A stretch of 64,000 bases of DNA, taken from assembly GCA_018821305.1 (NCBI GenBank), contig JAHJMN010000189.1:55115-119114 (forward strand), written 5' to 3'. This DNA is from Myxococcota bacterium (GTDB lineage Bacteria > Myxococcota_A > Polyangia > HGW-17). The position numbers and the translations under genes were made by a program. Under the pieces are notes generated by a model. The model was given only the letters and a program-made list of their open reading frames with translations. It searched no databases and was not told the DNA's origin. This document shows positions 7,651 through 49,008 of this stretch, in pieces; the stretch's first letter is position 1, and every line of letters starts with the position of its first letter.

Positions 7651-8406
7651 ATGAATCTGAACTCATTCAAATGGCTCGGTTATTTTTTCCTTCTCTCCGG
7701 AATGGGGATTGTAACCCTCTCCATGGGCTGGATTGCTGGATTTCACGGTCTCGGTACCCTCATGACTGTCTCATTAATTCCTCTTCTTCTGGCTGTTCTT
7801 ATTTCGTTTTTTGTCATCAATATTCAGGAGAACGATCTTAAAAAAAGAGACCTGGAACGGAATCTGAACATGAGAACAATACAATTACAGGAAGCAAATC
7901 AGATAATCCGAAGGATTTCTACTAAAGATAGACTGACAGGGCTGTACAATCGCCGGGGACTGAGAGAATTATTGAAACGTGAAATACTTCGATGTGAACG
8001 TCTCAAGACATCCCTTGTTGTTCTGGCAATTACATTTGATGAAGGACGCGATAAAGATAATATAAAAAGATACTCAATGATGAGCGTTCTTGGTAAAAAA
8101 TTGTCAAACTACATTCGCTCTACTGATGTTTTTGCGAGGGTAAGCGAAGATACACTGGCAATTCTTCTTCTGGATACTGGAGTAGATGGTACAAAAATCT
8201 TTCTCGACAGACTTTATGAACAGTTGAACCAGAGCAGTTTCCGATTTCCCGTTTTCAGAGCAGGGTTGGCAATTTTTCCAACACACAGCCCTAATCCTGA
8301 TGATTTAATTAACATGGCTATGCATACGGCGAAACAAACGAACCCAGGCGATATGGGAATTTCTGACGGATTTATACCCGACAATGTACACTCCGGGATT
8401 GACTGA
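7651..8406 (+). CDS. membrane-anchored degenerate GGDEF-domain protein (GGDEF replaced by SEDT; I-site RxxD retained)
   Basis: Two N-terminal TM helices. DRLTGLYNRRGL matches the GGDEF-domain start. The position of RYGGEEF reads RVSEDTLAILL. RSTD sits five residues upstream, matching the I-site RxxD. Confidence 0.65.
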   Translation: MNLNSFKWLGYFFLLSGMGIVTLSMGWIAGFHGLGTLMTVSLIPLLLAVLISFFVINIQENDLKKRDLERNLNMRTIQLQEANQIIRRISTKDRLTGLYNRRGLRELLKREILRCERLKTSLVVLAITFDEGRDKDNIKRYSMMSVLGKKLSNYIRSTDVFARVSEDTLAILLLDTGVDGTKIFLDRLYEQLNQSSFRFPVFRAGLAIFPTHSPNPDDLINMAMHTAKQTNPGDMGISDGFIPDNVHSGID

Positions 8407-10563: not shown

Positions 10564-13500
10564 ATGATTTCCGATAATTTTCAGTCTTCGCCACTTTTCA
10601 ATCAAATAGTTGATAATATTCTTGAAAATGTTGACATTAAACTTAGCTCCGGGGATCTGGCTGATCTTCGCACTGTTCTCGTGGGAGCAAGGAATCAACT
10701 TATTTCCATTGAAAGAGAACTCGCTAATCTGAGTATAAAAACTGAAGAGATAAAGCGAGCAAATAAAAATTTTCTCAAATTGTATAATAGTGCTCCAGTT
10801 GGTTACCTGAGCATAGATATTGAAGGAAAAATTATTTCAATTAATATAACTGGAGCATCTCTTCTGGGCAAGCTTCAGATAAATCTTATTGGAGATAACT
10901 TTTTCACTTTCTTATCTAAAGACGAACATGAGCTTCTTTCGGAAAAGATCAGAAATACCGCTATCACCGGGGAATCATTTAAGCATGATCTGACAATTAA
11001 CCGACCTAACGGTTCAATGATGCATGCAGCTCTCGAAGGCGAAGTTGCCTCTTCTCATGACGGTTTTTTCAATATTGTTATCAGTGATATTACCATCCGT
11101 AAAATTTCCGAAATGGCCCTCAGGCGTTCGGAAGGATGGTTTCGAGCAACAATTGACGCCGTAAGTGAAATACTTGTAGTTGTCGATCCTTCTCTTAGAA
11201 TTCTGCTTTGTAATGAAGCATTTAGAAGGCAAATGGCCAGGATTAAAAAGTTTTCTGAACCTGTGGGTGAAAACATTATTGATTTTTGTCCATTTTTGGG
11301 TGAACGAGAGCGCAATGAATTCCAATGGATTTTCGAAACGGGCAAAGCAGTCAACTCGCGTATTGATTTCAAATCGGACTCCTTTGATTTGTTTCTTGAA
11401 ACTCGGCTTATTCCTATTTTCGATAATCAGGGAAAAGTAGTTCAGACCCTTGGCGTAATGACAAACATCACTGATAAAGTGATTGCCACAAATGCCAGTG
11501 AAGAAAAAGAAGTCTACCTTAAGGGCATTATTGAAAATGCTAACGACATAATCTTTTCTTTCAATCTCGACGGTTCAATTACATATATTTCCCCGGCGTT
11601 TTCTCGAATTCTAGGTAGAAATACCAGAGATATTCTAGGGAAAAATCTTTCTTCAAACCTTCATGCAGACGACATTGCCGAGTGGGAAAAAGCTACCAGA
11701 GTACTTCTTACGGACCATGAACCAATACGGAACCTTAAAATCCGTTTTAAAAACAAAAGCAATGAATGGTGGTGGTTTCTTGTAAGTATGTCTATTGTTG
11801 AAAACAAAGATGGCAACATCATCTATGGAGTCGGTGTTGCGACGGATATTAACGCACTCATTAAATATCAGGAAGCACTGGAAGAATCACGTCTTAGTTA
11901 TAAAGAATTATGGGAAAGTCAGGGAGAAGGTGCCGCTTTTCTGGATCCCAATGAAGTATTTATTCATGTTAACCCCTTTGGAGAAAAGATTTTCGGTCTT
12001 GACAGAGGTGTTCTCAAAGGTCGTAGTCTTCTTGAATTTGTTGATAATCAGGACCTGATTACGCTCCGTAATGAAACAAAGAAAAGGAAAAAGGGAGAGT
12101 CCAGTAACTACGAGCTCAAAATTAAACTGCCGGATGAAACAAATCGCATTATTTCAATTACTGCAGCGCCTAAATTTGATGACGTGGATGGAACGTACCT
12201 CGGAACTTTTGCTATTTTCCGTGATATCACTTCCAAAAAGGAACTCGAAAACAACCTCAGGAACAGTGAAGAAAGACATCGACAATTATTTGAAAATAAT
12301 GCTGCGGTGCAACTGATTATAAGCGCAATGGATGGAAGCATTATTGATGCAAATCCCGCAGCAAGTAAGTTTTATGGACATTCCAGAGAAAAATTGCGAT
12401 GCATGAACATGACTGATTTGAATGGTCTGACAACGGATCATGTCAAAGAATTTATTCGTCAGAGATTAGAAGAAGAAAAGTATATATTTCATCTTAAACA
12501 TAAACTGGCAAGCGGCGAACTACGAGATGTTGAGGTTAAAACCAGCCCCGTAAAGATAAACGACGACCTTTTAATTCACTCTTTTATTACTGACATAACC
12601 CAGCAGCGTTTGAGCGGGGAAAAATCAGCACATCTCGAAAGAATGCTCATCCATTCTCAGCGAATGGAAGTTTTCGGTAATATAGCCAAAAGCTTAACCA
12701 CAGAATTTTCTACAATTTTATCCGAGATTGGAGAAAAAACTACATTTCTGCGGAAAGGTGGCCAACTTCCGCCGGAATCTGCGGAAATAGATTCTCTTAT
12801 TGAAAAGGGACAAAAGCTTATAAACCATATTCTTATGTTTGGCTCTAATCTCCCCTTTGAGCTACAAAAGTGGGATCTTATCCCATTTATCGAAAGAATG
12901 CAGCCCATCATCGGTATGATTCTTGGTGCAAACTATGAGCTTTCCTTTCAACTCAAGGGTGGTGGAAGTGTCTTTCTTGACCCAATTCTTATGGAGCAGG
13001 TCATTGTCAACATAATTACAAACAGTCGTGATTCAATGCCGAGAGGTGGCTCTGTTACCGTATCAACTGATACTGCAACTTTTGCTGAACCCAGCCACGC
13101 TCTGGGTCTCTCTTCCGGTCGGTACTCAGTTATAACAATTCATGATCAGGGAGTGGGCGTAGAAAAAGAAATGGAAAAACACATTTTTGAACCATTTCTT
13201 ACCACCAGGCGTATCAAGTCCTCTACCACAGGCTTGTCCCTGATTACCGTGCATGGAATTATGAAACAACATTTGGGTGCCATTGAATTAGTTAATGAAT
13301 TTGGCGTTGGGACCATGGTCAGACTATATATGCCACTGATTGATGGTGTTGAAGTAACAACCTGTGATGATAGAATCCTGAATAAAACTGTACTTATTGT
13401 AGACGATGAAGAGGGGATAAGAGCCGTAACCCGGAAAATTCTTGAAATGGAAGGATTAAGAGTAATCGAATCACCGTCAGGAGAAGACGCACTTAAGTTT

Positions 13501-13746
13501 ATTGAAATACATCATCCAGAGATTGATCTTGCAATAATTGATATGATATTACCTGGAATGACTGGCAATATATTCAGCCAGTCACTTGCAGAATTATACC
13601 CTTCAACTCTAATGTTATTTATTTCCGGTTACCCGGAAAGCCTTGTTGCAAGGCTTGGAATTGATGAAAGCAAAGTAAACTTTCTATCCAAACCATTCAG
13701 TGTAAAACAATTCCGGGATAAAGTTCGCAGCATTCTCTGCATGTAA
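10564..13746 (+). CDS. multi-PAS hybrid histidine-kinase-like protein with C-terminal receiver; canonical phospho-acceptor His absent
   Basis: At least four PAS-like blocks. The dimerisation/H-box region reads SQRMEVFGNIAKSLTTEFSTIL where related kinases have KMEAvGrLAGGvAHDFNNLL. HATPase N box NIITNSRDSMPRGG and G1 DQGVGV are present; the G2 box is degenerate (TTGLSL). The REC domain has DDEEG, the acceptor Asp in IIDMILPGMTG, and S and K in the expected places. Confidence 0.75.
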   Translation: MISDNFQSSPLFNQIVDNILENVDIKLSSGDLADLRTVLVGARNQLISIERELANLSIKTEEIKRANKNFLKLYNSAPVGYLSIDIEGKIISINITGASLLGKLQINLIGDNFFTFLSKDEHELLSEKIRNTAITGESFKHDLTINRPNGSMMHAALEGEVASSHDGFFNIVISDITIRKISEMALRRSEGWFRATIDAVSEILVVVDPSLRILLCNEAFRRQMARIKKFSEPVGENIIDFCPFLGERERNEFQWIFETGKAVNSRIDFKSDSFDLFLETRLIPIFDNQGKVVQTLGVMTNITDKVIATNASEEKEVYLKGIIENANDIIFSFNLDGSITYISPAFSRILGRNTRDILGKNLSSNLHADDIAEWEKATRVLLTDHEPIRNLKIRFKNKSNEWWWFLVSMSIVENKDGNIIYGVGVATDINALIKYQEALEESRLSYKELWESQGEGAAFLDPNEVFIHVNPFGEKIFGLDRGVLKGRSLLEFVDNQDLITLRNETKKRKKGESSNYELKIKLPDETNRIISITAAPKFDDVDGTYLGTFAIFRDITSKKELENNLRNSEERHRQLFENNAAVQLIISAMDGSIIDANPAASKFYGHSREKLRCMNMTDLNGLTTDHVKEFIRQRLEEEKYIFHLKHKLASGELRDVEVKTSPVKINDDLLIHSFITDITQQRLSGEKSAHLERMLIHSQRMEVFGNIAKSLTTEFSTILSEIGEKTTFLRKGGQLPPESAEIDSLIEKGQKLINHILMFGSNLPFELQKWDLIPFIERMQPIIGMILGANYELSFQLKGGGSVFLDPILMEQVIVNIITNSRDSMPRGGSVTVSTDTATFAEPSHALGLSSGRYSVITIHDQGVGVEKEMEKHIFEPFLTTRRIKSSTTGLSLITVHGIMKQHLGAIELVNEFGVGTMVRLYMPLIDGVEVTTCDDRILNKTVLIVDDEEGIRAVTRKILEMEGLRVIESPSGEDALKFIEIHHPEIDLAIIDMILPGMTGNIFSQSLAELYPSTLMLFISGYPESLVARLGIDESKVNFLSKPFSVKQFRDKVRSILCM

Positions 13747-13759
13747 AATAGCTTTTTAT

Positions 13760-14908
13760 TCAGGTGCCCCTGAGGGAAATAACTTCATCATATATAGATT
13801 CCAGTTTTTCATTAACTTTAATTATATCATAATGTTCAAGCATTCGCTCTCGAGCGTTTTTCCCCAATTCTTCTCGTAATACTCTGTTAGAAAGAATGCG
13901 AAAAAGACCATCGGCCATCCCTGCTACATCTCTCTCAGGATAAAGAAAACCAGTCTTTCCATCTGCAACAATATCCGGTAGACCCCCATGCCAGTGTGCC
14001 AGGACCGGAACACCACATGCCTGCGCTTCTTTTGCGACTATCAAACCAGATTCCCTGTCCATATTTGGAGCGACCAGAGAAGGTGTTATAACTACCGTAG
14101 CCTGTTTCATTGCCTTCATTACTTCGTCATGAGGAAGAGCTCCCGGCATTTCAACTAAATTTGAAACTCCATATTTTTCTGCAATTTCTATTAGTTCCCC
14201 CCGAAGAGGGCCATCTCCAATAATAAGCATTTTCGCTGCAACACCGCGGTGAACAGCATGTGCAAATGCTCTTATTCCAAAAGCAAATCCCTTTTTTGCT
14301 ACAAATCGGCCAACCATGACAACCAGATTATCCCCTGGACTGACTGCTGGTGGTGAAAAACGAGAAATATCTATACCCAGTTTGTGTACTTTAATTTTAT
14401 TTTCAGGACAACCGGCTTCAATTGCCAGCTCTTTAAGTTCCGAAGACGCCGCCAGAAATAGTGTGGCATGGTTGAAAATTTCATTTTTCCGCATTGTATA
14501 ATAAAAAAATTCAGGATTCTTCTGATCAGGTCCAACTAAAATCGTCACATCTCTACCATGAAGTGAGACAACAAGAGGAATTTTAAACTTTTTAGCATAA
14601 GGTAAAGCATACAGTGTATTATGACCGAAGTGAGCATGAATAAGTTTAAAATCTCTTTGGGCAAAAACATTGTAAAAAGGTTTATATAAACCAGTAAGAC
14701 CATAAATTAAACTTGCAGGACTTAAAGAACCCATTAAATTCTGATCCGTTGAAAACACTTCATGCCCAGGATAAACATCTCGATTCAGATACTTCCTGGC
14801 AAATACAGTGCCGCGATATTTTTTATGAAAACGAAGTTCATCGTGAATGAACGTCTCGGATAAATGTAGAAAATTATTTCTAAAAAGAGCAAATTCAAGT
14901 ACTGACAT
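13760..14908 (-). CDS. glycosyltransferase family 4 (GT-B fold)
   Basis: EAQACGVPVLAHWHGGLPDIV matches the E-A-x-A-x-G-x-P-V motif of the GT1/GT4 C-terminal domain; about 380 aa. Confidence 0.8.
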   Translation of the reverse strand: MSVLEFALFRNNFLHLSETFIHDELRFHKKYRGTVFARKYLNRDVYPGHEVFSTDQNLMGSLSPASLIYGLTGLYKPFYNVFAQRDFKLIHAHFGHNTLYALPYAKKFKIPLVVSLHGRDVTILVGPDQKNPEFFYYTMRKNEIFNHATLFLAASSELKELAIEAGCPENKIKVHKLGIDISRFSPPAVSPGDNLVVMVGRFVAKKGFAFGIRAFAHAVHRGVAAKMLIIGDGPLRGELIEIAEKYGVSNLVEMPGALPHDEVMKAMKQATVVITPSLVAPNMDRESGLIVAKEAQACGVPVLAHWHGGLPDIVADGKTGFLYPERDVAGMADGLFRILSNRVLREELGKNARERMLEHYDIIKVNEKLESIYDEVISLRGT

Positions 14909-16385
14909 TGGTGGTTCCTTTCTTGAATTTTAAATCTTTATTAAGTGAGAAGTAAAAAATTGCATAAATTGCCATGAGGCCACCCCCGGTAATTAATCTT
15001 GCAACAAGAGTTGAACGGGTAAATAACGGGAAAAATGGCCATAAGAAAATCAATAATCCAAGTATAATCCAGAAAGATAGTATTTTCAGAGATAAAACCA
15101 TTCCTATGAGCTTTCTCGCCTCAATAATCTGCATTATGGAGACTATAGTCCCGGAAATTGCCGTTGCAACTGCAGCCCCCATGAGGCCCCAATGAGGTAT
15201 TAAAATTAAATTAAATATGAAATTAAGCACCCCTACGGTAATGGAATTGAATAGATTCCAGCGGGAAAACCCAGCCATAATTATCGCATTTCCCGTAAGA
15301 CCTGTTGCTATAGAAAGGAAGGGATTTATCAGGAGGATAATCATGAAGTCTGGATTCTGATTAAAAGAAGAATCAAAAAGCATTACAAGATCCTGTCGGT
15401 AGAATGCGACCACAAACAGGGCTGGAATTCCAAGGGATATTGCCCATCCTGTAATTTTTTCAAATATATTATTAAGCTCAGATATTCTACCTTCATGATA
15501 GTGCCTGGCAATGACCGGACTGTAGATTCCTGAAAAAATAAGCTTTACTTGACGTACATTCCGTACGATTTGAGCACCAATGCTATAGAACGCTATCATG
15601 CCTGGTTTAACTCCAAAACCAGCAAGCATAAGTACATCCATGGAAGAAATCAGGCGATTAAGTGCCATGTTCAAGTTCTGAGCAATGGCGAAAGTAAAAA
15701 GATCCGGGGTAGGTTTGTACACGAATTTAAAAGACATAAACTTACGGATATCTACCAGCCTGTTAAGCATAAAAATAGAGACAACCCCGGTGATGACCCA
15801 GCCGAGTAAAAAAGATAGCCCGGTGCCCACAGTACCCAAATCACACAAACGAAAAAGAACTGCCAGTACCAAAGTCGCGATGGGAAATACTCCACCTATT
15901 GTGATGACTTCTACACCCATTTTCAGGTGTGCTTTTGGAATAGCTACCGCAAGACGTGAAACGGCTTCCAGAGGTAAGATAAATGCCATTATCTGCAGCA
16001 TAGGGACTAGCTCGGGATAATCTTTGTAATAAAATTTATTTAGAACAGGGGCTCCGAATACCAGAAGAAGGGCAAGGACAGTGCTTAGTAGCAGTGTTGA
16101 AAGAATAATCTTTCTCATGTACGAATTGAATACATCCGAGTTATTCTCATCGTGAATATGCCTTGATGCGAACATCACTGTAGCATCAATAAAACCGCTT
16201 ATAGCAAGACCTCCCAGTATTTCCACAAGATTGTATGCAATAAAGAAAATTCCTATCGAAACTTTACCATACATTCTTGTGAGAACCAGAAAAAGAACAG
16301 GTCCCCCAATTATTTTTGTAAGCATTCCAATGAAATTTACAAAAGCTCCTTTTTTTATCTTTCTGGTAATATCAGCTTCAGTCAT
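14895..16385 (-). CDS. polysaccharide/oligosaccharide flippase (Wzx-like, MOP superfamily)
   Basis: 496 aa, about 12 to 14 predicted TM helices, N-terminus KKGAFVNFIGMLTKIIGG typical of Wzx. Overlaps the GT4 gene by 14 nt. Confidence 0.75.
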   Translation of the reverse strand: MTEADITRKIKKGAFVNFIGMLTKIIGGPVLFLVLTRMYGKVSIGIFFIAYNLVEILGGLAISGFIDATVMFASRHIHDENNSDVFNSYMRKIILSTLLLSTVLALLLVFGAPVLNKFYYKDYPELVPMLQIMAFILPLEAVSRLAVAIPKAHLKMGVEVITIGGVFPIATLVLAVLFRLCDLGTVGTGLSFLLGWVITGVVSIFMLNRLVDIRKFMSFKFVYKPTPDLFTFAIAQNLNMALNRLISSMDVLMLAGFGVKPGMIAFYSIGAQIVRNVRQVKLIFSGIYSPVIARHYHEGRISELNNIFEKITGWAISLGIPALFVVAFYRQDLVMLFDSSFNQNPDFMIILLINPFLSIATGLTGNAIIMAGFSRWNLFNSITVGVLNFIFNLILIPHWGLMGAAVATAISGTIVSIMQIIEARKLIGMVLSLKILSFWIILGLLIFLWPFFPLFTRSTLVARLITGGGLMAIYAIFYFSLNKDLKFKKGTTNVST

Positions 16386-16428
16386 ATTGGCTTTTTATCA
16401 CATGTGAGAAACAGCAGAAACAGAATTT

Positions 16429-18708
16429 TCAGGGGACAGCGTAAATGCGAACGGACCAGGGCGGGAGAGAAACATTTACCTGTCCTGATGAAACAGATAA
16501 AGTGTCCGTCTCGTAAAGAACATCTGCAAGTGTAGTTCCATCAGAAATGCCCCAGGATGACTTCATTTCTATCTGGGTATTACAGCCATCATTTCCACCT
16601 AAAACAACAAGCAAACGTTCGTTTCCAAGTTTTTTAAGGTATGCCAGACAAGACGCAGATCCATGACCTGCATCATAACTTCCAGTCCTGAGAGCTTTGT
16701 AAGTATTTCTTGCATGATTAAGTCTTGAAACGAGATCCTTGAGATTTCTCTGAGCATCACTCAAATTAGTATCCGAAAAATCCATCATCCTGCGATTATC
16801 CGGATCCTTAACACCAGCAAGTCCGAATTCATCACCGTAATAAATAACAGGAAGTCCACGCACTGTCAGAAGAAAACCGAAAGCAACACCCATACGTTGA
16901 TATACAGTAGCATCACCAGTTTGAGGTACAAGTGCCTCATTAAATGCCTGACATCCGTCTCCATTTGCCTGTCCTGCGGCTACCGAGGAAAATCTCTCGA
17001 CATCATGGTTGCCGAGGAAAGTCCCCATAAGTGTACCAGTGGAAATTGAACCTTCCAACGCCCAATCAAGATCAGTAATGTTCTGACGATTAATATGATT
17101 CTCATATATAAATGTATTCAGATCAAGCAGATTGCTTACAGCACCTATTAAAGCAGTACGTATAGCTCCATACATTGGAAAATCAAACTGTCCCTGTAAT
17201 TCTGAAGAGCTTATTTTCTCATTTATTATACCGTAATCGTACAGGAAGTTTTCACCAACCATATAAAATGGCGCAGTAATGGAGGATGCTTTTTGGTCTA
17301 GTTCTCGCCTGAGAAGTCTCAAATAGTTTGAATTTATATGCTTTGTTGCATCTACCCGAAATCCGTCCAGATCGAATGTATCCACCCACCACATGGCATC
17401 ATCAATTAACTGACGAAGCAGAAGATGGTTTTTGTGATTGTAGTCAGGAAGATATTCTGTGAACCAGCAAGTGAGCGCATATTCATTCCACCCGAGGTGA
17501 CCGCACTTGTTTTTCCAGAACTCATCAGTATTAATGCTTCCTGGATAATTAAACCAGAATTGATTTCCGTAATATTGTTCATGCAGCGGATGATCTATAA
17601 ATATGTGATTGGCTGCCCAGTCAACCAGCACCCGGATTCCTCTGGCATGAGCCTCATAGACAAGTTCCTGAAGATCCTCAATAGTACCGAAATGATTCTC
17701 AACATCACGTGCTGCCTGAGGCCAGTAAGCATGATATCCAGAGAACGACTGACCACAATCACCCGGTAATGCGTAATCGGGATTGTCCATTGGCGTTGAA
17801 AGCCACAAAGCAGTAATGCCTAAATCTTCAAAGAAGCCATCTTTGAGTTTTTGAGTTATGCCCTTCCAGTCACCTCCACGCCAGTTAACCTGTTCCGGAA
17901 GTCCGGAGATAGGAGCATCATTTGAAACATCGCCATTATAAAATCTATCGACAAAAATGGAGTACATTATCATGTCTTCCCAGACTTTTCCTTCAGGCTC
18001 CATCCAGAAAGATAAATTTCTTGAATATGTTGTTCCATTTTCTGAATTTACGTTTATTTCAACTTTATATTTTCCAAGTACCAGATTTGATGCGGTTACT
18101 GTCCCAATTCCTGTTTGTGGGTTAAAATTAAGTGAAGAATTGACTTCAACCCCATCTTTTCTTAGTATTGCCTCGACGTTTTCAATATTTGAACCATCTC
18201 CTCCGCGATAGATCTGAAATGTCATGGATGCAGATTTTTCATCCCAGTTCACAGTTGTGTTTAACTCCCTGGTTGTAGCAGAACTACAATCAGGAAGAGT
18301 CATCAGTGAGTTTTCATTGATTTGAGTCTTATCCCAGATAGTATACGGATTTGATGAATCCAAATGCCAATTTGTAGAATCCGAAACTAATTTATATTCG
18401 TATTCTCCAGCGGGGAGGATTATTAAGCCAGGCCTGGATTCATGGGGATTACTCGTAACTGAAATAGTCCAGGTATAACCATCCCTAAGTAAAAGCCAGT
18501 CATCATCAATTTGCCACTCATTAAAGTTTCCTGCAAGATGGACACTGCCTTCACTTCCGGCATTATAAACAATATTAAAAGTACAATCAGTTCTAACAGG
18601 AATGCTGCTTGAATTATTTGTATTATTACTATTGTTTCCGGTATTAGTTGATGACTCATCACAACCGAGTGAAAATAGTGACACACATAAAATAAGTAAA
18701 AATTTCAT
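16429..18708 (-). CDS. GH13 alpha-amylase-family glycoside hydrolase, lipoprotein with N-terminal accessory domains
   Basis: Lipobox LFSLGCDE. GH13 region II GFRVDATKHI, region IV FLGNHD, region I-like VLVDWAANH. Confidence 0.85.
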   Translation of the reverse strand: MKFLLILCVSLFSLGCDESSTNTGNNSNNTNNSSSIPVRTDCTFNIVYNAGSEGSVHLAGNFNEWQIDDDWLLLRDGYTWTISVTSNPHESRPGLIILPAGEYEYKLVSDSTNWHLDSSNPYTIWDKTQINENSLMTLPDCSSATTRELNTTVNWDEKSASMTFQIYRGGDGSNIENVEAILRKDGVEVNSSLNFNPQTGIGTVTASNLVLGKYKVEINVNSENGTTYSRNLSFWMEPEGKVWEDMIMYSIFVDRFYNGDVSNDAPISGLPEQVNWRGGDWKGITQKLKDGFFEDLGITALWLSTPMDNPDYALPGDCGQSFSGYHAYWPQAARDVENHFGTIEDLQELVYEAHARGIRVLVDWAANHIFIDHPLHEQYYGNQFWFNYPGSINTDEFWKNKCGHLGWNEYALTCWFTEYLPDYNHKNHLLLRQLIDDAMWWVDTFDLDGFRVDATKHINSNYLRLLRRELDQKASSITAPFYMVGENFLYDYGIINEKISSSELQGQFDFPMYGAIRTALIGAVSNLLDLNTFIYENHINRQNITDLDWALEGSISTGTLMGTFLGNHDVERFSSVAAGQANGDGCQAFNEALVPQTGDATVYQRMGVAFGFLLTVRGLPVIYYGDEFGLAGVKDPDNRRMMDFSDTNLSDAQRNLKDLVSRLNHARNTYKALRTGSYDAGHGSASCLAYLKKLGNERLLVVLGGNDGCNTQIEMKSSWGISDGTTLADVLYETDTLSVSSGQVNVSLPPWSVRIYAVP

Positions 18709-18770
18709 AATTTACCACCTGCCTGTCCTGCGGGACATTGGTAAAATATATAGCATATATCAGCCTTTTT

Positions 18771-19517
18771 CTATTCTTTTTGATTACTTTTTTCTTTTTT
18801 AATTGATTTTATTAAGGATGGGTCATCAAGATCCTCAAAGTTTTCTGGTATTTCTATTTTTTTTCCAGGCTCTTTAGATTCTTGAACAACTTCATCGGAC
18901 TCGATTGGATTTTCTTCTATTATATCTATGTCTTCAGAAGCATCTTCTGAGTCCGTCTCTGATATTAAATTATTAAAAAGACAAGGAACATTTATTTCTT
19001 CAAGAATTTCTATAGATTCAAAATCATCATTCTGAACAGGAGTTTCATTCTCCAGATCAACTACTAGTTCGCGGAACTCAGGGATTGGTTTTATCCAATT
19101 AGCCCACAAGGTACGGACAACATCGTTGGCGCCTGCAATAAAAATTTTTGTTTTGGGTGGAAATATATCGACTATTGCATCCCGAGTCTGTTTTTCATTA
19201 TATGAACTGGTAGCAATAAAAAGTGCTCCGGATTCAGGATCGCTACAAAATGGTACAAAATGGTAATTTAAACAGACATTCAAACCATATTGATTCACAA
19301 GGATTCTGGGAATCGGTTTTTCTTCAAGGAGTACACAGGGCATATCCCATTGATATGCGAGACACTCTACGAGTTGAAACTCTGTAATCAACCCTTCAGA
19401 AATTAGAATCCGACCCAATTTTCCACCGAAATATTCCTGTTTCCACAAACAGAAAGCTAATTGCTCGTGGGTTATCAACTCTTTTATGATAAGTATCTGT
19501 CCTAATTTCATACGCAT
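18771..19517 (-). CDS. standalone MshEN (T2SS-E N-terminal-like) domain protein, putative c-di-GMP receptor, with an acidic C-terminal tail
   Basis: Two tandem copies of the MshEN motif RLGxxLLxxGLLxxxxLxxxLxxQ: KLGQILIIKELITHEQLAFCLWKQ and KLGRILISEGLITEFQLVECLAYQ. The second matches perfectly. Confidence 0.65.
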   Translation of the reverse strand: MRMKLGQILIIKELITHEQLAFCLWKQEYFGGKLGRILISEGLITEFQLVECLAYQWDMPCVLLEEKPIPRILVNQYGLNVCLNYHFVPFCSDPESGALFIATSSYNEKQTRDAIVDIFPPKTKIFIAGANDVVRTLWANWIKPIPEFRELVVDLENETPVQNDDFESIEILEEINVPCLFNNLISETDSEDASEDIDIIEENPIESDEVVQESKEPGKKIEIPENFEDLDDPSLIKSIKKEKSNQKE

Positions 19518-19815
19518 CCTTATCAGATATTTTTATTAATATCAGGACCAAAAACAGTTATTGCTAACAAGTTTCCCTTATAAAAGCACCGAATGATCAA
19601 ATATTCAATTACTGATATACCACTCTATTAAGAATTAATCAATATTCACAATTGAATAGTTAGTTCTAGTATTTCACATATTGGAAGGATAATTCGAATA
19701 ACCCTGAGCAGGAATGGTTTGAGGATATTCTATATATTTTCAGGAAAGGATTATTTTTGTTATAATGTAATATTCGAAGTAAGTCTATGAATGGTTCTCA
19801 AAAAGAATTGCTGTG

Positions 19816-20706
19816 TTATTCACTTCGGGGAGCATACTGCTTGAAGAAGAATGAAGCACCAAAGTGGAAGAACATGGTGTTTTCCCACATTTGATCTTTG
19901 CCATCTACTTTAATATATTCAAATGTCGCATCTCCACTTAAATCGGTGAATGTCCTGTAGTTGCGGTCACCATTTGCATCAAAACCAGCCTGATTTCTCT
20001 TAATATACATCCAGCGGAATTCGACATTAACTGCAATCCAACGATTCAGGTATACACGCAGACCAAACCCTGCCTGAGGACCAATTCTCCATCCACCATT
20101 TTCTTCTTCGATATCCATATGAAGTTTGTGCTGGTTTGAAGGATCATCAGGTCTTGTATTATCCGTAGATGGATTTGTGTATTTTTTCAGACTTCCAGCT
20201 TCGAGATTCACAAAAGCAACCCCTGCATAGAAGTAAAGATCGAAGTTGAAAAACAACGTCGAGAAAAGACCCATTTTTCCAAAGGCCGGTGTATATGCTA
20301 TATGCGGCCCAATAACCATTCGAAGGGTATCAAGAGCGTCTTCCATAGCTTTTTTAGATGGAGTCGGGTTGATATAGGTATTTGCTTCGAGTTGATCCGG
20401 AAGTGTACTTTTAATTTCGTCCGTAAGACCAGTACTCATTGCAAATGGGGAATAATGGGCACTGAATCCAAATGAAAAATACTCATTTAAATGATATTCA
20501 ACTTTAGCACCAATAAGAAAACTGTGTTTGTAGTCCTGAAGGAAACTTACGCCCAGAGAAGGTGTTACTTCAAGCCTCTCATTGAGATAAAGAATGCGTT
20601 TTCTTACGGCGGGTTCATCCTTGAGTGGATCAGTTCTATCAGCAGCATTGGCTGTAGTTACCGTTAGAATATTGAAAAGGAGGAGAAAACCGATAATGCG
20701 CTTCAT
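19816..20706 (-). CDS. outer-membrane beta-barrel protein (Myxococcales-type OMP family), paralog 1
   Basis: Signal peptide, alternating hydrophobic beta-strand pattern, Gly/aromatic-rich; homologous along its length to the adjacent gene. Confidence 0.55.
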   Translation of the reverse strand: MKRIIGFLLLFNILTVTTANAADRTDPLKDEPAVRKRILYLNERLEVTPSLGVSFLQDYKHSFLIGAKVEYHLNEYFSFGFSAHYSPFAMSTGLTDEIKSTLPDQLEANTYINPTPSKKAMEDALDTLRMVIGPHIAYTPAFGKMGLFSTLFFNFDLYFYAGVAFVNLEAGSLKKYTNPSTDNTRPDDPSNQHKLHMDIEEENGGWRIGPQAGFGLRVYLNRWIAVNVEFRWMYIKRNQAGFDANGDRNYRTFTDLSGDATFEYIKVDGKDQMWENTMFFHFGASFFFKQYAPRSE

Positions 20707-20723
20707 ACTTGTGCTCCTTCCTA

Positions 20724-21767
20724 TTATTTAAACGTGGTGTATTCAAAGTCAGTCGGGAAGAATACAGACAGACCAACCTGAAAGACTATGTTGTTAATAA
20801 AACGACCGGAAGCAGCTTTTTCTGCCTCTGATGCACTGGCTTCAATACGATCAGAACTTTCAAATCTGTCCTGCATCATGTAGTTACGCATGGACAACCA
20901 TACTGTAAGCCATTTACTTATAAATACCCGGAAACCAACACCTACCTGAATGGTAATGTTAGTATTGGTCCATGATTCATGACCCGCGTTACGAGGGATA
21001 ATCTCCGTCTGAGTTGCCCCCAAACCACCACTCAGGAATATACCCCATTGGAGTATCTTCTTGTTATGAATGGCCATTTTACCGTATGCCGCTTCATAGT
21101 TAGCATTCAAGGTTGCAGTCCACAGGTAAGCATTCAGCGTAGGAAGTGTACGCTGCTGAAGACCTGTGAGATATGCGCGATCAGTCTGCTGTTTAAGGTA
21201 AGCATGGCCACCCAAACTGAAACTGAGTGCATCGGAAATATAGTAGGCTGCCTCACCACCCAAAAGGATGTGCCTAATGAGGTTATCGTTGATGGTAACA
21301 CCCACATAGGGAATGAGCTCAACACGGTTCTGTTTGAGAATCAACTTTCGTGGAACAACTTTGATATCGTTCCAGTATGATCTCTCATCAGAATCTCCAC
21401 TTGATGATTTCATTGGGCCAGATTTAACTGATTTGGGATCAACAGGACCTGTTTTCGGTGCTGTTTTGGGCTTTTCGTCGAGCCCACTGAGATCGTCATC
21501 AAGCCCGTCCCCACCCTTTGCCGGAGTATCCACCTTTCCGGTGGTCGGTGGTGCATCATCTTCAATCTTGATGTCATCACCTTCCTTCTTTTTCGAGGTA
21601 CCTTTTGAGTCATCCTCGATTTGGATGTCATCTTCCGCTACTTTTTTAGTATCTTTTTTTGTTTCCTTTTTATCTACCTTCTTTTTGGCCTGAGAACTAA
21701 CGTTCTGCGGAAGTAAAGCCAGTACAAAGATAGTCAGGAATGTAGTCAGCCAAGTCTTCATATGCAA
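20724..21767 (-). CDS. outer-membrane beta-barrel protein, paralog 2, with a K/D/E-rich low-complexity N-terminal extension
   Basis: Signal peptide. Extension contains DDIQIEDD and DDIKIEDD. The barrel portion aligns with paralog 1 (WTNTNITIQVGVGFRVF against WRIGPQAGFGLRVY). Confidence 0.55.
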   Translation of the reverse strand: MHMKTWLTTFLTIFVLALLPQNVSSQAKKKVDKKETKKDTKKVAEDDIQIEDDSKGTSKKKEGDDIKIEDDAPPTTGKVDTPAKGGDGLDDDLSGLDEKPKTAPKTGPVDPKSVKSGPMKSSSGDSDERSYWNDIKVVPRKLILKQNRVELIPYVGVTINDNLIRHILLGGEAAYYISDALSFSLGGHAYLKQQTDRAYLTGLQQRTLPTLNAYLWTATLNANYEAAYGKMAIHNKKILQWGIFLSGGLGATQTEIIPRNAGHESWTNTNITIQVGVGFRVFISKWLTVWLSMRNYMMQDRFESSDRIEASASEAEKAASGRFINNIVFQVGLSVFFPTDFEYTTFK

Positions 21768-21963
21768 ACCTCACTTAAGATTCTGCGCCGTCCGGTCGCT
21801 AACATGGCTAGAAAAATTAAATAGAACTCAGAATTTTTCAGCTGGCACAATATCACGCCATTGTCTGGTTATCAACTTAATTTTCCGCCATAGACAATAA
21901 AAACTAACAAAACCATTATTAAACTTAGTTGTAAATATTAAAAAATACAATCAATACATGATG

Positions 21964-23619
21964 TTATGATTTTAAGTATTTTTCTGCAGACTCAATTATC
22001 TTCATAGGTAGCCCAAGTATACCTGCAATTAAAATCGCATCATTTTTCTTTACTTCATCACCACTAAAAATTGTATAGTCCATCAAATTATTTAATATAT
22101 TCAATGTCAATTCAGCGTTTTTTATCTTATGCAAATTATTTTTAAGGCTTCCTGCACTAAGAGACAAAACGCCTGGATGTTTTCCTGCTTCATGAATATG
22201 CCCTGCGAAAATTGCAAAGTTGTGATCTCCTACTTTTATATAGTCAAATAAAGCTTTAGTAAGGGCTAGAGCTGATTCAACATCTGTACTTCTAGCAAAT
22301 TCATCAAAAAGTAGAAAATAGTCACTCCCATCAAGAGATGTAATGAGATCTCTTATTTCCCGCCCAAATGACGAAAGGCCCTTTTCGGGAGAGTCGGAAA
22401 CGGATCCTAACCAACGGATAGATTTAAAGAGTCTTGAACTGAAACTTGTGCATGGCAATCCAGCTCCCATTTGAAATAATGCTTGAAAAAAGCCGGCTGT
22501 CCTTAAAAATGAACTTTTTCCACCCATATTGGGCCCTGTAAGGTTAACCAACTGCGATGTAATTAAAACTGTCACTGGAGTATAGGTGCCACCACAGTGT
22601 TCCACCTGTTTTTTTATCCAGGGATGAACTCCACCCTTCAAGACAAATGAATTTTTGTCTTCAATAATCGGAATGCAGCAATTGTATTCTTTATTAAAAA
22701 TTGCCAGTGCATTACACATATCCAATTTTCCTAAAAGCTCTAAATCTGACTTATAAATATCTCTAAGAACCAACCAGATTTCCCTGGATATCTTTCCAAA
22801 TAGTTTCTTTTCCAAAAGAAAAGTTTGTTTTTTGATTTTATTAAGTTTTTCTAATACCTGGTCAATTTTCGGTGTTGACCCAAGCCTGTATTTCCAGCTG
22901 TCCTGGCTGTTCTCAAGCAGATTAAAATAACCACTTTTCAAAATAATTTCATTGAATCCAGGGTTATCTTTTCCAACCACCAGGTCCATTCTGAGAGATG
23001 ATTGCTTAATCCCGAGGAATTGGGCGGCTTCTTTTCGGTGTTCCTGTTCTAAAAAAGAAAGCTGATTACTCAAATCATATCGATTTTTGCGTAAATCCTG
23101 TGGCAAACCAATCCCACAATTAAAGCAATCATCAGATATATATGGACCAATTATATCCAGAGCCCGGTCCCAGTTATCTGAAAAACCCCAATATGGATCA
23201 CCATTGCTTTCCAGTAATATATTTTTAATAAGACCAATAGCGTGAGCTATCTTAAATATTACTGTCAACTCAATGTCAGTCCAACTCTCATAACTTTCTT
23301 CAAAAACTGAAATATCACGCACAGATTTTAAGGCTCTGAGAATTATGTTCCCATTTAGCTCTTTGTGAATAATTTCTGACCAGGATTTTAATCGGAAAAA
23401 GTGCTCCTCAAGCTCTTTTTCCATTCCTGTAATGAAAAACGAAGGTTTTTGAAGCCAGATACGTCCAGGTTCCGAATTAACACAAAGGGAATCAAGGAAC
23501 TGCTTGAAAAAAATTGTTTTACTGGTTACAGAATCCAGAAATTCGTTTTTCTTGTTAAAATCAGTCAAAACCTGAAAACTCCACAGTCCAAACCATCCAG
23601 TTACTGTCCTGAAATACAA
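21964..23619 (-). CDS. MutS2-family ATPase (MutS domain V, no mismatch-binding domain); 5' end lies inside a MITE copy and the start codon is uncertain
   Basis: Walker A LTGPNMGGKSSFLRTAG, Walker B-like FLLFDEFARSTD. The track's N-terminus MYFRTVTGW translates a MITE terminal inverted repeat. The true start may be the TTG/ATG downstream (VLTDFNKK... or M at about 23424). Confidence 0.65.
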   Translation of the reverse strand: MYFRTVTGWFGLWSFQVLTDFNKKNEFLDSVTSKTIFFKQFLDSLCVNSEPGRIWLQKPSFFITGMEKELEEHFFRLKSWSEIIHKELNGNIILRALKSVRDISVFEESYESWTDIELTVIFKIAHAIGLIKNILLESNGDPYWGFSDNWDRALDIIGPYISDDCFNCGIGLPQDLRKNRYDLSNQLSFLEQEHRKEAAQFLGIKQSSLRMDLVVGKDNPGFNEIILKSGYFNLLENSQDSWKYRLGSTPKIDQVLEKLNKIKKQTFLLEKKLFGKISREIWLVLRDIYKSDLELLGKLDMCNALAIFNKEYNCCIPIIEDKNSFVLKGGVHPWIKKQVEHCGGTYTPVTVLITSQLVNLTGPNMGGKSSFLRTAGFFQALFQMGAGLPCTSFSSRLFKSIRWLGSVSDSPEKGLSSFGREIRDLITSLDGSDYFLLFDEFARSTDVESALALTKALFDYIKVGDHNFAIFAGHIHEAGKHPGVLSLSAGSLKNNLHKIKNAELTLNILNNLMDYTIFSGDEVKKNDAILIAGILGLPMKIIESAEKYLKS

Positions 23620-23665
23620 AAAATCAAATTTTTAACCGATTTTTTTCTCAGGACACGAACTATCC
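23599..23665. mobile_element. MITE-like intergenic repeat, minimal copy (terminal inverted repeats plus about 30-nt core)
   Basis: agttactgtcctgaaatac aaaaaatcaaatttttaaccgatttttttc tcaggacacgaactat. Confidence 0.65.
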
Positions 23666-23826
23666 AGTTTTATCCAAAATTGATTTAATTTCACACTATT
23701 TTAAAAATTTAAAATCAATCACATGAAAATAAAAGCATTACAATTGTAGGACATGACTGAAATATTCAAAAGATTTTTTTTCTTAAGAAATAATGTTATA
23801 ACCGTTCAGCGAAAGGCAGGATTCGA

Positions 23827-24540
23827 ATGGAAAAAGCACTAATTCTTGCAGCGGGAATGGGCTCAAGGCTTGCTAAAGCTCACGATAGACCTAAACCTCT
23901 TGTAGATATCAATGGACAAGCTTCGATTATAAGACTATTGAAACAGTTCGAAAAATATGGGATACGGGAAACTGCAGTAACTCTTGGTTTCCGAGGCAAT
24001 GAAGTCCGATCATTTATAGAATCTAACTATAACGGTTCAATAAAGATTTATTGGTTTGAAAACCATCGATATCAGGAACCAAACGGTGTAAGTGTTCTCA
24101 GTGCTTCAGAATTTGTAACTGAGCGAGTCATGCTTTCCATGGCGGATCATGTTTTCAGCGACTCAGCGGTAAACGTAATTTCCTCTATCGATAGCAAGGG
24201 GAGTACTTCATACCTGATGGTTGACTATGATCTTGACTCAATATTTGATATGGATGACGCTACAAAAGTATTGACGGATCCTGAAGGTCGAATAGTTGAT
24301 ATCGGCAAGGAAATTCCTGATTTCAATTGCATTGACACAGGTCTTTTTTGCATTTCTCCAGAACTGGTTGAAGCGCTGGCTCGTTTAGCATCTCCAACTC
24401 TGAGCCAGGGAGTAAGGGAATTAACAATTTCTGGTCAAATGCTCACGACACCAATCGGAAATGGCTGGTGGCAGGATGTTGATACCCCTGAAACTCTGAA
24501 GCACGCACTTGAAATAATATCCAAAAGAGGTAATGAATGA
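23827..24540 (+). CDS. sugar-phosphate nucleotidyltransferase (NTP_transferase fold, LicC/GlmU-N-like)
   Basis: N-terminal MEKALILAAGMGSRL is the G-x-G-t-R-L nucleotide-binding signature; 237 aa. Confidence 0.7.
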   Translation: MEKALILAAGMGSRLAKAHDRPKPLVDINGQASIIRLLKQFEKYGIRETAVTLGFRGNEVRSFIESNYNGSIKIYWFENHRYQEPNGVSVLSASEFVTERVMLSMADHVFSDSAVNVISSIDSKGSTSYLMVDYDLDSIFDMDDATKVLTDPEGRIVDIGKEIPDFNCIDTGLFCISPELVEALARLASPTLSQGVRELTISGQMLTTPIGNGWWQDVDTPETLKHALEIISKRGNE

Positions 24541-25115
24541 TAAAAGCGGCCATCTGGTTGTGTCTGATGTTCGGAAGCAACCGTTCCATTGAGGTTACTT
24601 CAGGATTTGGAGGAATTGTTTGGGAAAACGTTCAGGATCATCCAATTAAATCCGATATTATGACTAACATTACTGTAAAAAGGATTTTTTCTGACGGATG
24701 GTTTTACGGCACTGGAATTACTTTTAACTCCTATTCCGGAGATGGTTATTATTTTTATGGCGCCGGAGCAATTATTCTGGATTTTATGATTTATCGTAAA
24801 ATCAATATGGAGGATTTGAAGATAGTAATGGGTTTCGGAGGTGCCGCAACAATGCTTTATTCCAGGCGTCTTATTCCTGGAGGAGAAAGTATTCCTGAAG
24901 GAGTATATTCCTATTGGAATGCCGGATTAAGTGGTGCTGTCAGTCTTGGCATTTTCAAACCTGTTACCAGTGCTCTTGAGTTTGGTATAAAAATGAATTT
25001 TTATGCCGGTGGATACCTGAATCGGTGTTGGGAAAACGGGGAAGAAGACTGCCGGAAAAGAGATCAAACTCTTCAACAATGGTTTGTAGGAGTTGTTTTA
25101 CGATTCAGTTATTAA
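24537..25115 (+). CDS. hypothetical protein, possibly a small outer-membrane beta-barrel
   Basis: 4-nt overlap with the upstream gene. Gly/Tyr/Phe-rich, amphipathic strands, C-terminus ...VVLRFSY with an aromatic last residue. Confidence 0.35.
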   Translation: MIKAAIWLCLMFGSNRSIEVTSGFGGIVWENVQDHPIKSDIMTNITVKRIFSDGWFYGTGITFNSYSGDGYYFYGAGAIILDFMIYRKINMEDLKIVMGFGGAATMLYSRRLIPGGESIPEGVYSYWNAGLSGAVSLGIFKPVTSALEFGIKMNFYAGGYLNRCWENGEEDCRKRDQTLQQWFVGVVLRFSY

Positions 25116-25126
25116 ATAGTTACTGT

Positions 25127-25172
25127 CCTGAAATACCGAAAATCAAATTTTTCGCCGATTTTTAGCTCAGGA
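25127..25172. repeat. MITE-like repeat fragment (module C) immediately upstream of the 25181 gene
   Basis: tagttactgtcctgaaataccgaaaatcaaatttttcgccgatttttagctcaggag. The final AGGAG acts as the ribosome-binding site for the ATG at 25181. Confidence 0.55.
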
Positions 25173-25180
25173 GAACAAAA

Positions 25181-25945: not shown

Positions 25946-25947
25946 CA

Positions 25948-47909: not shown

Positions 47910-47916
47910 AGTAACC

Positions 47917-48936: not shown

Positions 48937-49008
48937 AAAGTACCTCCATTTTGTAAACGAATACTACACCCTCTGGATATGTGTTTGCAATAGAAAGCAG
49001 CGATAAAA

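Follow-up and report, generated by a model that had tools for sequence, protein, structure and literature searches.

A stand-alone MshEN-domain protein with an acidic tail, a candidate c-di-GMP receptor, is encoded beside a GH13 lipoprotein in Polyangia-type Myxococcota

A stretch of 64,000 nucleotides from a Myxococcota bacterium (assembly GCA_018821305.1, contig JAHJMN010000189.1, positions 55,115 to 119,114; hereafter the window, numbered from its first letter) carries on its minus strand, at 18771-19511, a gene of 246 codons that is annotated at NCBI as hypothetical (KKF34_17795). Its product is a complete MshEN/GSPII domain protein without an ATPase, the domain being followed by a long acidic tail, and the gene directly downstream encodes a lipoprotein of the alpha-amylase family (glycoside hydrolase family 13, GH13). 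The interpretation that we favour, if with somewhat less than even confidence, is that this MshEN-tail protein is a cytoplasmic receptor or adaptor for cyclic diguanylate (c-di-GMP) that forms a conserved two-gene unit with the GH13 lipoprotein. A preliminary description of the locus had proposed something larger, a c-di-GMP-gated glycan unit that also took in a Wzx-like flippase and a family 4 glycosyltransferase (GT4). What survives of that proposal is an ATPase-less MshEN protein with intact predicted ligand contacts in a terminator-free run of genes, but the flippase and the glycosyltransferase do not stand as conserved partners, being present at this position in 0/6 of the relatives that could be compared.

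The assignment to MshEN made in that description is borne out by profile searches, in which two models score above their cut-offs. The NCBIfam model NF053729 ("c-di-GMP_motif, MshE-related") reaches 53.5 bits (E 1.5e-14), well over its cut-off of 38, with residues 4-56 aligned to positions 1-53 of its 53, and Pfam PF05157 covers the C-subdomain, its 25 bits exceeding the gathering score of 23.1. Judged by these models, the tandem-motif match is far beyond chance. The sequence matches in the PDB are the N-domains of PilF, PilB and MshE, the best single one being residues 10-109 of PilF, i.e. its GSPII-A domain, and the closest curated NCBIfam models are glycosyltransferase-fused (PRK15489 at 58 bits and NfrB at 39 bits). 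Of the PilB model TIGR02538 only the first 134 positions are matched, with 33 bits where the cut-off asks for 676. Neither the Pfam nor the NCBIfam scan of the protein gave a match to PF00437 (T2SSE), in agreement with the earlier remark that the ATPase domain is missing.

The predicted fold tells the same story. The full-length AlphaFold model has a mean pLDDT (predicted local distance difference test) of only 51 owing to the tail, and the TM (template modelling) scores that it gave in the fold search were uninformative; we have replaced it for this purpose by a model of the domain alone (pLDDT 92, predicted TM score 0.81). The order of secondary structure elements (H, helix; E, strand) in this domain model is H-H-H-H, then H-H-E-E-H-E-H, the second part being an alpha/beta subdomain of the MshEN_C or T2SSE_N1-like type (residues ~55-139, 19095-19349, minus strand) that is delimited by PF05157, the AlphaFold domain model and Foldseek. 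In Foldseek the domain model superposes on the c-di-GMP-bound structures 5HTL and 8PDK with a TM score of 0.69 and a deviation of ~3.8 Å over 140 columns (E for 5HTL, 1.7e-9), whereas the non-binders superpose less well (PilF GSPII-A, 0.56; XpsE, 0.53-0.56).

The ligand-binding signature of the domain has the form of two 24-residue copies of (R/K/L)LGxx[LVI][LVI]xxG[LVI][LVI]xxxxLxxxLxxQ, separated by a 5-residue spacer; this extended (R/K/L)LG consensus is taken from the work on PilF (PMC11731258). Domains of this kind bind c-di-GMP as a monomer, with affinities from nM to low uM. Regular-expression matching and the family alignment locate both copies on the minus strand: motif I, KLGQILIIKELITHEQLAFCLWKQ, spans residues 2-25 (19437-19508), motif II, KLGRILISEGLITEFQLVECLAYQ, spans residues 31-54 (19350-19421), and the spacer between them is EYFGG. 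Motif II has K in place of R at its first position and matches the extended consensus exactly; it also fits the relaxed motif of Wang 2016. Motif I departs from the consensus at position 1 (K) and at position 10 (E for Gly) and conforms to the rest. The strict RLG form is matched by neither copy. Thus, of the earlier statement that there are two tandem MshEN motifs of which the second is a perfect RLG match, the tandem pair holds and the perfection does not, position 1 being K and the fit being to the extended consensus only.

Whether such a pocket could still accommodate c-di-GMP depends on the contact residues, and the ten positions other than arginine that contact the ligand are all present (L3, G4, L18, L22, Q25, L32, G33, L47, L51 and Q54). 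In the family alignment the Gly, Leu and Gln contact columns are invariant although overall identity is merely 24-41%. In motif I the contact residues L, G, L, L and Q are the same throughout the family, and in motif II the invariant columns are G33, R34, I35, G40, L47, L51 and Q54; position 10 of motif I, by comparison, is occupied by N, K or H in the relatives. On this alignment the residues predicted to touch c-di-GMP are all retained, and purifying selection acts on them. Two proteins with comparable deviations are instructive: the two motifs of PilF GSPII-B start with K and L, and this domain binds with a dissociation constant of 6 nM without using arginines (PMC11731258), and E. coli NfrB, which binds c-di-GMP (PMC8669469), has Q at position 10 of its motif I, PLGQILLENQVIT (Wang 2016 supplement). 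In XpsE, the substitutions known to inactivate are G11V, I19R, L29R, G40L, L54H, L58C and Q61V, and none of them occurs in the MshEN-tail protein. Because PilF GSPII-B and NfrB bind with similar deviations, and because the inactivating substitutions of XpsE are absent while the contact columns are invariant, the departures at positions 1 and 10 are, by this comparison, not disqualifying. We consider it probable, on these grounds, that the MshEN-tail protein binds c-di-GMP.

An alternative is that the domain does not bind the nucleotide, or that its binding is irrelevant, and that it is instead a protein-interaction module, a free copy of the GspE/PilB N-domain which competes for or decoys the docking site of the ATPase (on GspL, PilM or a partner of PilZ type), with the acidic tail adding further contacts. 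There are precedents for this: some MshEN domains have degenerated and bind no ligand (XpsE and PilF GSPII-A), the N-domains of PilB and XpsE bind proteins, and the PilB(N)-PilZ complexes 7LKM and 7LKO are among the fold matches. Moreover, the single PDB sequence that resembles the protein most is that of the non-binding PilF GSPII-A (residues 10-109), and motif I is off consensus at two positions. Nevertheless, the ligand-contact Leu, Gly and Gln residues are the most conserved columns of the family, all of the XpsE-inactivating substitutions are absent, NF053729 is matched well above its cut-off, and the model lies closer to the ligand-bound structures than to those of the non-binders; we regard a purely protein-binding role as unlikely.

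The other half of the protein is of a quite different nature. In the full-length model residues 130-246 are predicted to be disordered, and the tail proper (residues 140-246, i.e. 107 residues; 18774-19094, minus strand), as delimited by pLDDT and isoelectric point (pI), has a pLDDT of ~30. The highly acidic C-terminus that had been noticed before is evident in its composition, residues 139-246 having a pI of 4.05 and 33 D+E against 10 K+R. A negative net charge is found in 18/18 family tails (from -12 to -78), which cannot be aligned with each other apart from short hydrophobic-acidic motifs. The tail of the window protein has two of these, IEILEE (18996-19013) and IDIIEE (18912-18929), as against 0.09 expected in shuffled tails (p=0.002), and in the family alignment the EE of the second one is at least 90% conserved. 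With a strict regular expression, however, significance is confined to the low-GC members, and for this reason we restrict the claim to one ΦΦEE motif (two hydrophobic residues, then Glu-Glu) that is at least 90% conserved. Short linear interaction motifs within disordered regions typically look like this. One family member of 490 aa (P0006) has in its tail ~ten tandem copies of (E/S)DIEDLIEEE(M/I/V/L)S, a repeat that resembles an amplified version of the ΦΦEE motif of the window protein.

The limits of the gene itself need a small correction. Its longest open reading frame (ORF), 18771-19517, had been taken as the gene, and this stands for the ORF; the start, though, is almost certainly the second ATG, at 19511, because every relative of the protein begins MK[IL]G, because the 88% relative in locus L001 lacks the first ATG, and because AAGGA is situated 5 nt 5' of the second. 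An identical protein (P0001) is encoded in assembly GCA_018819425.1.

The MshEN-tail gene is the fourth in a minus-strand row of seven in the ORF listing of the window, and the four at the 3' end are the same-strand genes of the preliminary description, all of which were recovered. The row consists of a MutS2-like gene (21964-23619, an ORF assignment), two outer-membrane beta-barrel protein (OMP) genes (20724-21767 and 19816-20706), the MshEN-tail gene, the GH13 gene (16429-18708; 759 aa), a gene for a multi-pass, Wzx-like membrane protein of the MOP superfamily (14895-16385; 496 aa) and the GT4 gene (13760-14908; 382 aa). The MshEN-GH13 gap is 62 nt, exactly as had been reported, and the MOP and GT4 genes do overlap, by 14 nt; the short gap between the GH13 and MOP genes is also real, but it measures 43 nt rather than 44.

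To see which of these neighbours are constant companions of the MshEN-tail gene, we have compared the window proteins by tblastn with 61 fetched loci. Twelve of these are informative (L001, L004-L007, L010-L013 and L041-L043), some being near-duplicates; two others, L008 and L009, are not, since their sequence ends too early. In 12/12 informative loci a GH13 lipoprotein gene lies directly 3' of the MshEN-tail gene on the same strand, its product being 58-68% identical to that of the window, and the gaps derived in the relatives are about 32-71 nt. The OMP pair precedes the MshEN-tail gene in all family loci, in the same order and with 57-77% identity. The whole conserved block reads histidine kinase <- two unknowns <- NTP-transferase | MutS2-like -> OMP -> OMP -> MshEN-tail -> GH13, and this order is retained over genomes of 39-69% GC. 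Beyond GH13 the picture changes completely: none of the six relatives with more than 3 kb of flank (0/6) has the Wzx-like or GT4 gene there by tblastn or Pfam, and what they have instead (MgsA, M18 peptidase, RNase T, phosphoesterase) is unrelated and mostly on the opposite strand. At the other end, the more distant genomes L037 and L039 keep the OMP pair and lack both MshEN and GH13. Because the MOP and GT4 genes are absent from this position in the relatives, and because the OMP pair occurs without MshEN and GH13, the conserved unit is limited to MshEN-tail plus GH13, located after the OMP pair; judged by the same comparison, the MOP-GT4 pair was inserted in this lineage only.

Two candidate extensions of the unit are eliminated by these data. 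The flippase and GT4 genes as conserved companions of the MshEN gene are excluded by the tblastn comparison with the 61 loci and by Pfam searches downstream of GH13, and the OMP pair as the origin of the unit is excluded by L037 and L039. In L039 the gene that follows the OMP pair (11259-11708) was considered as a possible MshEN gene and dismissed, its 149-aa product being a GYGR-repeat protein made up largely of GMGYGR repeats.

A fixed neighbourhood need not imply a joint function. It could be that the two genes have no functional link and are adjacent through an inherited block, the MshEN protein serving some unrelated c-di-GMP output such as motility or development. The conserved block indeed comprises nine genes of mixed function on both strands, all known members of the MshEN-tail family fall within one class (Polyangia/Haliangiales where named), and the receptor would be in the cytoplasm with the GH13 enzyme in the envelope. 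Besides, Myxococcus has 17-22 MshEN proteins whose roles are mostly uncharacterised. On the other hand, the order has been kept across genomes of 39-69% GC in which the MutS2-like proteins of the block are only 28-36% identical, a distance by which unlinked neighbours have usually been shuffled; the block ends exactly at GH13, with everything beyond it different; the MshEN-GH13 gaps are uniformly short and on one strand; and where the OMP pair is found elsewhere without MshEN and GH13, those two are absent together. Mere inherited adjacency seems to us rather improbable in the light of these points, and we put the co-transcription and functional coupling of MshEN-tail with GH13 at an even chance.

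The signals for transcription that can be read from the DNA are compatible with such a unit. The region 5' of the MshEN gene is 298 nt long; in comparison with L001 its distal ~170 nt have diverged and its proximal ~125 nt are almost identical. In this conserved proximal block falls a promoter-like element (19614-19642, minus strand, a consensus-level reading of the sequence) with a -35 hexamer TTGATT (19642-19637), a 17-nt spacer and an extended -10, TGgTATATC (hexamer 19619-19614); a consensus scan missed it, the final base of the -10 being C. In GC-rich relatives the equivalent 80-nt gap has TTGTCAT-N17-TATTCAT. Further downstream, a consensus scan revealed no terminators in the gaps of the four-gene run, and folding of the 62-nt and 43-nt gaps is no better than that of shuffled sequences (z -0.96 and +0.73). 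It is plausible that transcription starts at a promoter before the MshEN gene and continues through GH13 and, here, through MOP and GT4 as well, and the earlier view that the MshEN gene heads the unit is a reasonable one, given this promoter-like element just upstream and the lack of terminator-like structures downstream. An Rfam search by E-value of 13000-24000, which includes the 298-nt leader, found neither a c-di-GMP riboswitch nor any other known RNA. The leader also contains a 17-nt direct repeat (19591-19648; GAATGATCAAATATTCA / GAATTAATCAATATTCA on the plus strand, spacing 41 nt), one copy of which overlaps the -35-like hexamer and the other of which lies just downstream of the -10, both within the block conserved in L001; it could be a regulator binding site or a chance occurrence in AT-rich DNA.

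The nature of the GH13 protein sets limits on how any coupling might operate. Its assignment as a GH13 lipoprotein in the preliminary description is upheld: Pfam Alpha-amylase (PF00128) matches with E 1e-40, the best PDB relatives are the alpha-amylases 4E2O and 5A2A (Geobacillus, Anoxybacillus) and cyclodextrin glucanotransferases, and the catalytic regions DWAANH, GFRVDATKH, VGENF and FLGNHD are in register with 4E2O. The N-terminus, MKFLLILCVSLFSLGC-DESS, has a signal peptide and a lipobox Cys (as read from the sequence), and the signal peptide, the Cys, the D/E that follows and an N-rich linker are conserved in all 12 GH13 orthologues. By these features the enzyme is an exported lipoprotein that works outside the cytoplasm. 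It follows that a cytoplasmic receptor cannot gate it directly and that any coupling must be indirect.

The two genes downstream of GH13 are less alike in their credentials. The GT4 assignment made earlier is sound, with Pfam Glycos_transf_1 (PF00534) at E 1e-34 and Glyco_transf_4 (PF13439) at E 5e-13; the best NCBIfam resemblance is to WcaL (E 2.5e-37, far under the cut-off), BshA and MshA likewise falling far under theirs. The 496-aa membrane protein has no Pfam match, even at E<=1. Its colinear matches in NCBIfam, WZX_like (E 7e-4, with 18.7 bits where 300 are required) and SpoVB (E 2e-3), both fall short of the cut-offs, tblastn aligns it at 21-25% identity over 75-86% of its length with flippase-annotated genes (E down to 4e-15), and a crude hydropathy scan gives ~13 hydrophobic segments, where 12-14 transmembrane segments are expected for Wzx. 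It is probably a divergent member of the MOP family; the earlier Wzx-flippase label, for which no curated model is matched at its cut-off, is weakly supported.

These two genes are at the heart of a further alternative, namely that the four genes together constitute a c-di-GMP-gated unit of polysaccharide synthesis and export in which MshEN activates the GT4 and/or the MOP protein in trans, GH13 is a periplasmic trimming hydrolase and the upstream beta-barrels provide the exit through the outer membrane, i.e. a split version of the logic of Pel or NfrB. The tight spacing on one strand with no terminator-like hairpins would suit such a unit, the nearest curated models to the MshEN domain are glycosyltransferase-fused (PRK15489 and NfrB, as above), NfrB provides a case of an MshEN domain turning on an exopolysaccharide (EPS) synthase, and the inventory of genes recalls PelD, PelF, PelG, PelA and PelB. 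Set against this are the 0/6 relatives with MOP and GT4 at this position, a MOP protein without any Pfam match, a GT4 whose top resemblances (WcaL, BshA, MshA) are far below their cut-offs, and the rest of the 64-kb window, among whose ORFs of at least 150 aa there is no Pel-specific gene and no priming transferase, Wzy polymerase, polysaccharide co-polymerase (PCP) or outer-membrane polysaccharide export protein (OPX). The only other sugar-related genes of the window, for an NTP-transferase and a PglD-like acetyltransferase, are both far away, although pathway genes may be located in other parts of the genome. Membership in the Pel system is rejected on the lack of any Pel-family match in Pfam and NCBIfam. 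For a synthesis and export unit of this kind the prospects appear poor.

To return to the favoured interpretation, a c-di-GMP receptor or adaptor in a two-gene unit with GH13, one can envisage how it might operate. Within the four-helix bundle, a monomer of c-di-GMP would bind between the two 24-residue motifs, in a predicted pocket of the K/L type as in PilF GSPII-B; binding would re-orient the N1-like C-subdomain and thereby alter the availability of the acidic tail, which would then contact a partner encoded outside the unit, so that the processing of envelope alpha-glucan would be tied to the level of c-di-GMP. MshEN_C corresponds to the N1 subdomain by which secretion and pilus ATPases dock. 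In a more concrete version, the free N-domain of GspE/PilB type would dock on a secretion or pilus platform and modulate how the co-encoded lipoprotein amylase is exported or displayed at the surface, with PulA as the model; by analogy this is conceivable, if unlikely. In the present lineage the unit has been extended by the MOP flippase-GT4 pair. The boldest formulation, in which MshEN-tail is a c-di-GMP-dependent gatekeeper of envelope alpha-glucan, either by docking with its N1 subdomain and acidic tail on a secretion platform and licensing the export or surface display of GH13, or by a split, Pel-like secretion of alpha-glucan through GT4 and MOP, we consider quite improbable.

Several observations weigh against the favoured interpretation. 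Motif I, with its position-10 Gly missing, fails the relaxed [GAS] pattern of Wang 2016, and the basic patch at the N-terminus of V. cholerae MshE is missing. The compartments differ, the receptor being cytoplasmic and GH13 and the OMPs exported, so that any coupling would be indirect. The MshEN-GH13 pair sits within a larger block of nine genes of mixed function and its adjacency may be inherited synteny; the promoter calls are at the level of consensus only; and every family member is derived from a metagenome or a metagenome-assembled genome (MAG). What is directly established is the identity of the domain, its fold, the conservation of the motifs, the disorder of the tail, the gene order and the extracytoplasmic nature of GH13.

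As far as its distribution is concerned, the MshEN-tail family is small. An exhaustive HMMER scan returned ~2000 MshEN-type matches, and the architecture with MshEN at residue 1 followed by a tail (246-490 aa) accounts for just ~ten clusters of these at 50% identity; homologue searches with a word index, which found about a dozen family clusters, all MAG-derived, contributed a few further members. Their sources are MAGs or metagenomes labelled Myxococcota, Polyangia, Kofleriaceae or Haliangium, and in these searches the family is seen in Polyangia-type Myxococcota only.

Some other features of the locus merit mention. The OMP pair belongs to the NCBIfam family TIGR04565 (OMP_myx_plus; the two proteins score 88.6 and 73.3 bits, the cut-off being 60). 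Its two genes (19816-21767) are paralogous, the first having a long low-complexity N-region rich in Lys, Asp and Glu, and the pair is more widely conserved across Polyangia-type genomes than the MshEN-GH13 pair; a likeness to the GltA/GltB barrels of gliding motility or to the NfsA/NfsB pair is conceivable, a word-index search having returned unnamed MAG proteins only. In the upstream part of the block (21964-27978), the MutS2-like protein bears the MutS_V ATPase domain only, and the divergent unit comprises the NTP-transferase, two unknown proteins and an sCache-HAMP histidine kinase. On the other side, a plus-strand gene (10564-13746) that is convergent with the GT4 gene encodes a hybrid histidine kinase of 1060 aa, whose domains are ~5 PAS, one "diguanylate cyclase-like sensor" and a receiver; a related kinase is found farther from GH13 in L004. 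In favour of the receptor interpretation, the window also contains genes of c-di-GMP signalling. One (7651-8406, plus strand) encodes a membrane protein of 251 aa whose GGDEF domain (Pfam E 1.4e-12) is degenerate: RVSEDTL replaces GGEEF, and exactly 5 residues upstream there is an RxxD I-site (RSTD), a sequence pattern of degenerate-GGDEF c-di-GMP receptors. Close to it, at 4969-5778, an HDOD protein is encoded. Finally, the minus strand at 46785-50409 encodes a bacterial serpin (Pfam E 1.5e-96) adjoining an FHA-domain protein and a TPR protein.

MshEN is among the few widespread c-di-GMP receptor domains, and what is known of its function comes mostly from fusions with pilus or secretion ATPases or from NfrB, while the Myxococcota hold many ATPase-less copies of no known output. 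The family described here offers a clean and testable case, a minimal receptor plus tail paired with an exported amylase across deeply diverged genomes, and these include relatives of the culturable Haliangium ochraceum. Were the coupling real, it would tie c-di-GMP to the degradation or secretion of extracellular alpha-glucan and would show how a stand-alone MshEN protein passes its signal on; in the gatekeeper version it would be the first defined output of an ATPase-less MshEN protein in Myxococcota. If not, there is simply one more uncharacterised MshEN paralogue.

With respect to known systems, the preliminary description had called this type of unit undescribed for standalone MshEN proteins. 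That does not apply to the architecture as such, since ATPase-less or non-ATPase MshEN proteins have been catalogued (PA3740, FrgA, cce_1044, EpsG, NfrB); it does apply to the link with an amylase, for which our literature search yielded spurious matches only and no paper. The combination of MshEN with a conserved acidic disordered tail, and its fixed pairing to a GH13 lipoprotein, appear to be undescribed in the literature searched. The nearest parallel in architecture is P. aeruginosa PA3740, a protein with MshEN and a diverged T2SSE_N1 and no ATPase, which is involved in swarming and figures in the experiment-based binding-status list of Wang et al. Like the MshEN-tail protein it is essentially stand-alone, and its motif is intact; unlike it, PA3740 belongs to another phylum and has no acidic tail catalogued, the two being compared by description only; apart from the domain itself, no specific relationship between their sequences is detectable.

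The E. coli protein NfrB is a family 2 glycosyltransferase (GT2) fused to MshEN and acts as a c-di-GMP-activated EPS synthase (PMC8669469). It resembles the window protein in having a motif I without the position-10 Gly, and NfrB-type NCBIfam models are among the best matches. In NfrB, however, the receptor acts in cis on a processive GT2, whereas here it is a separate protein and the sole glycosyltransferase nearby is a GT4 that is not a conserved neighbour. The Pel system combines the receptor PelD with the GT4 PelF, the MOP-type PelG, the hydrolase PelA and outer-membrane export by PelB/C. In inventory, and in this genome only, the locus is similar, with a receptor, a GT4, a MOP-like protein, an exported hydrolase and outer-membrane beta-barrels. 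Nevertheless, no protein matches any Pel protein at the family level, the GT4 and MOP genes do not accompany the other genes in the relatives, the receptor is MshEN rather than the GAF plus degenerate GGDEF of PelD, and the hydrolase is a GH13.

The only published direct link that we found between c-di-GMP and a GH13 alpha-glucan enzyme is Streptomyces GlgX, a debranching enzyme that is bound and activated by the nucleotide itself (PMC9530166). GlgX is cytoplasmic and is its own receptor, whereas the present GH13 is exported and the putative receptor is separate. In Klebsiella, the GH13 lipoprotein PulA is secreted through a type II system, and the ATPase of that system, PulE, has this same N-domain. 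A GH13 lipoprotein thus occurs there, as here, alongside a GspE-type N-terminal domain, a parallel that would connect the two only hypothetically; in the window the N-domain is free-standing and there are no type II secretion genes.

The domain itself is best compared with those of V. cholerae MshE (5HTL) and T. thermophilus PilF GSPII-B (8PDK). It differs from them in having a 107-residue disordered acidic tail in place of the type II secretion or type IV pilus ATPase, in the residue at position 10 of motif I (E here; N, K or H in the relatives) and in the absence of the basic N-terminal patch. It nevertheless has the same fold of two subdomains and the same two 24-residue motifs with a 5-residue spacer, and all of the Leu, Gly and Gln contact residues are present. 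With PilF GSPII-B in particular it shares the K at position 1, and members of its family have an LLGRIL-type motif II.

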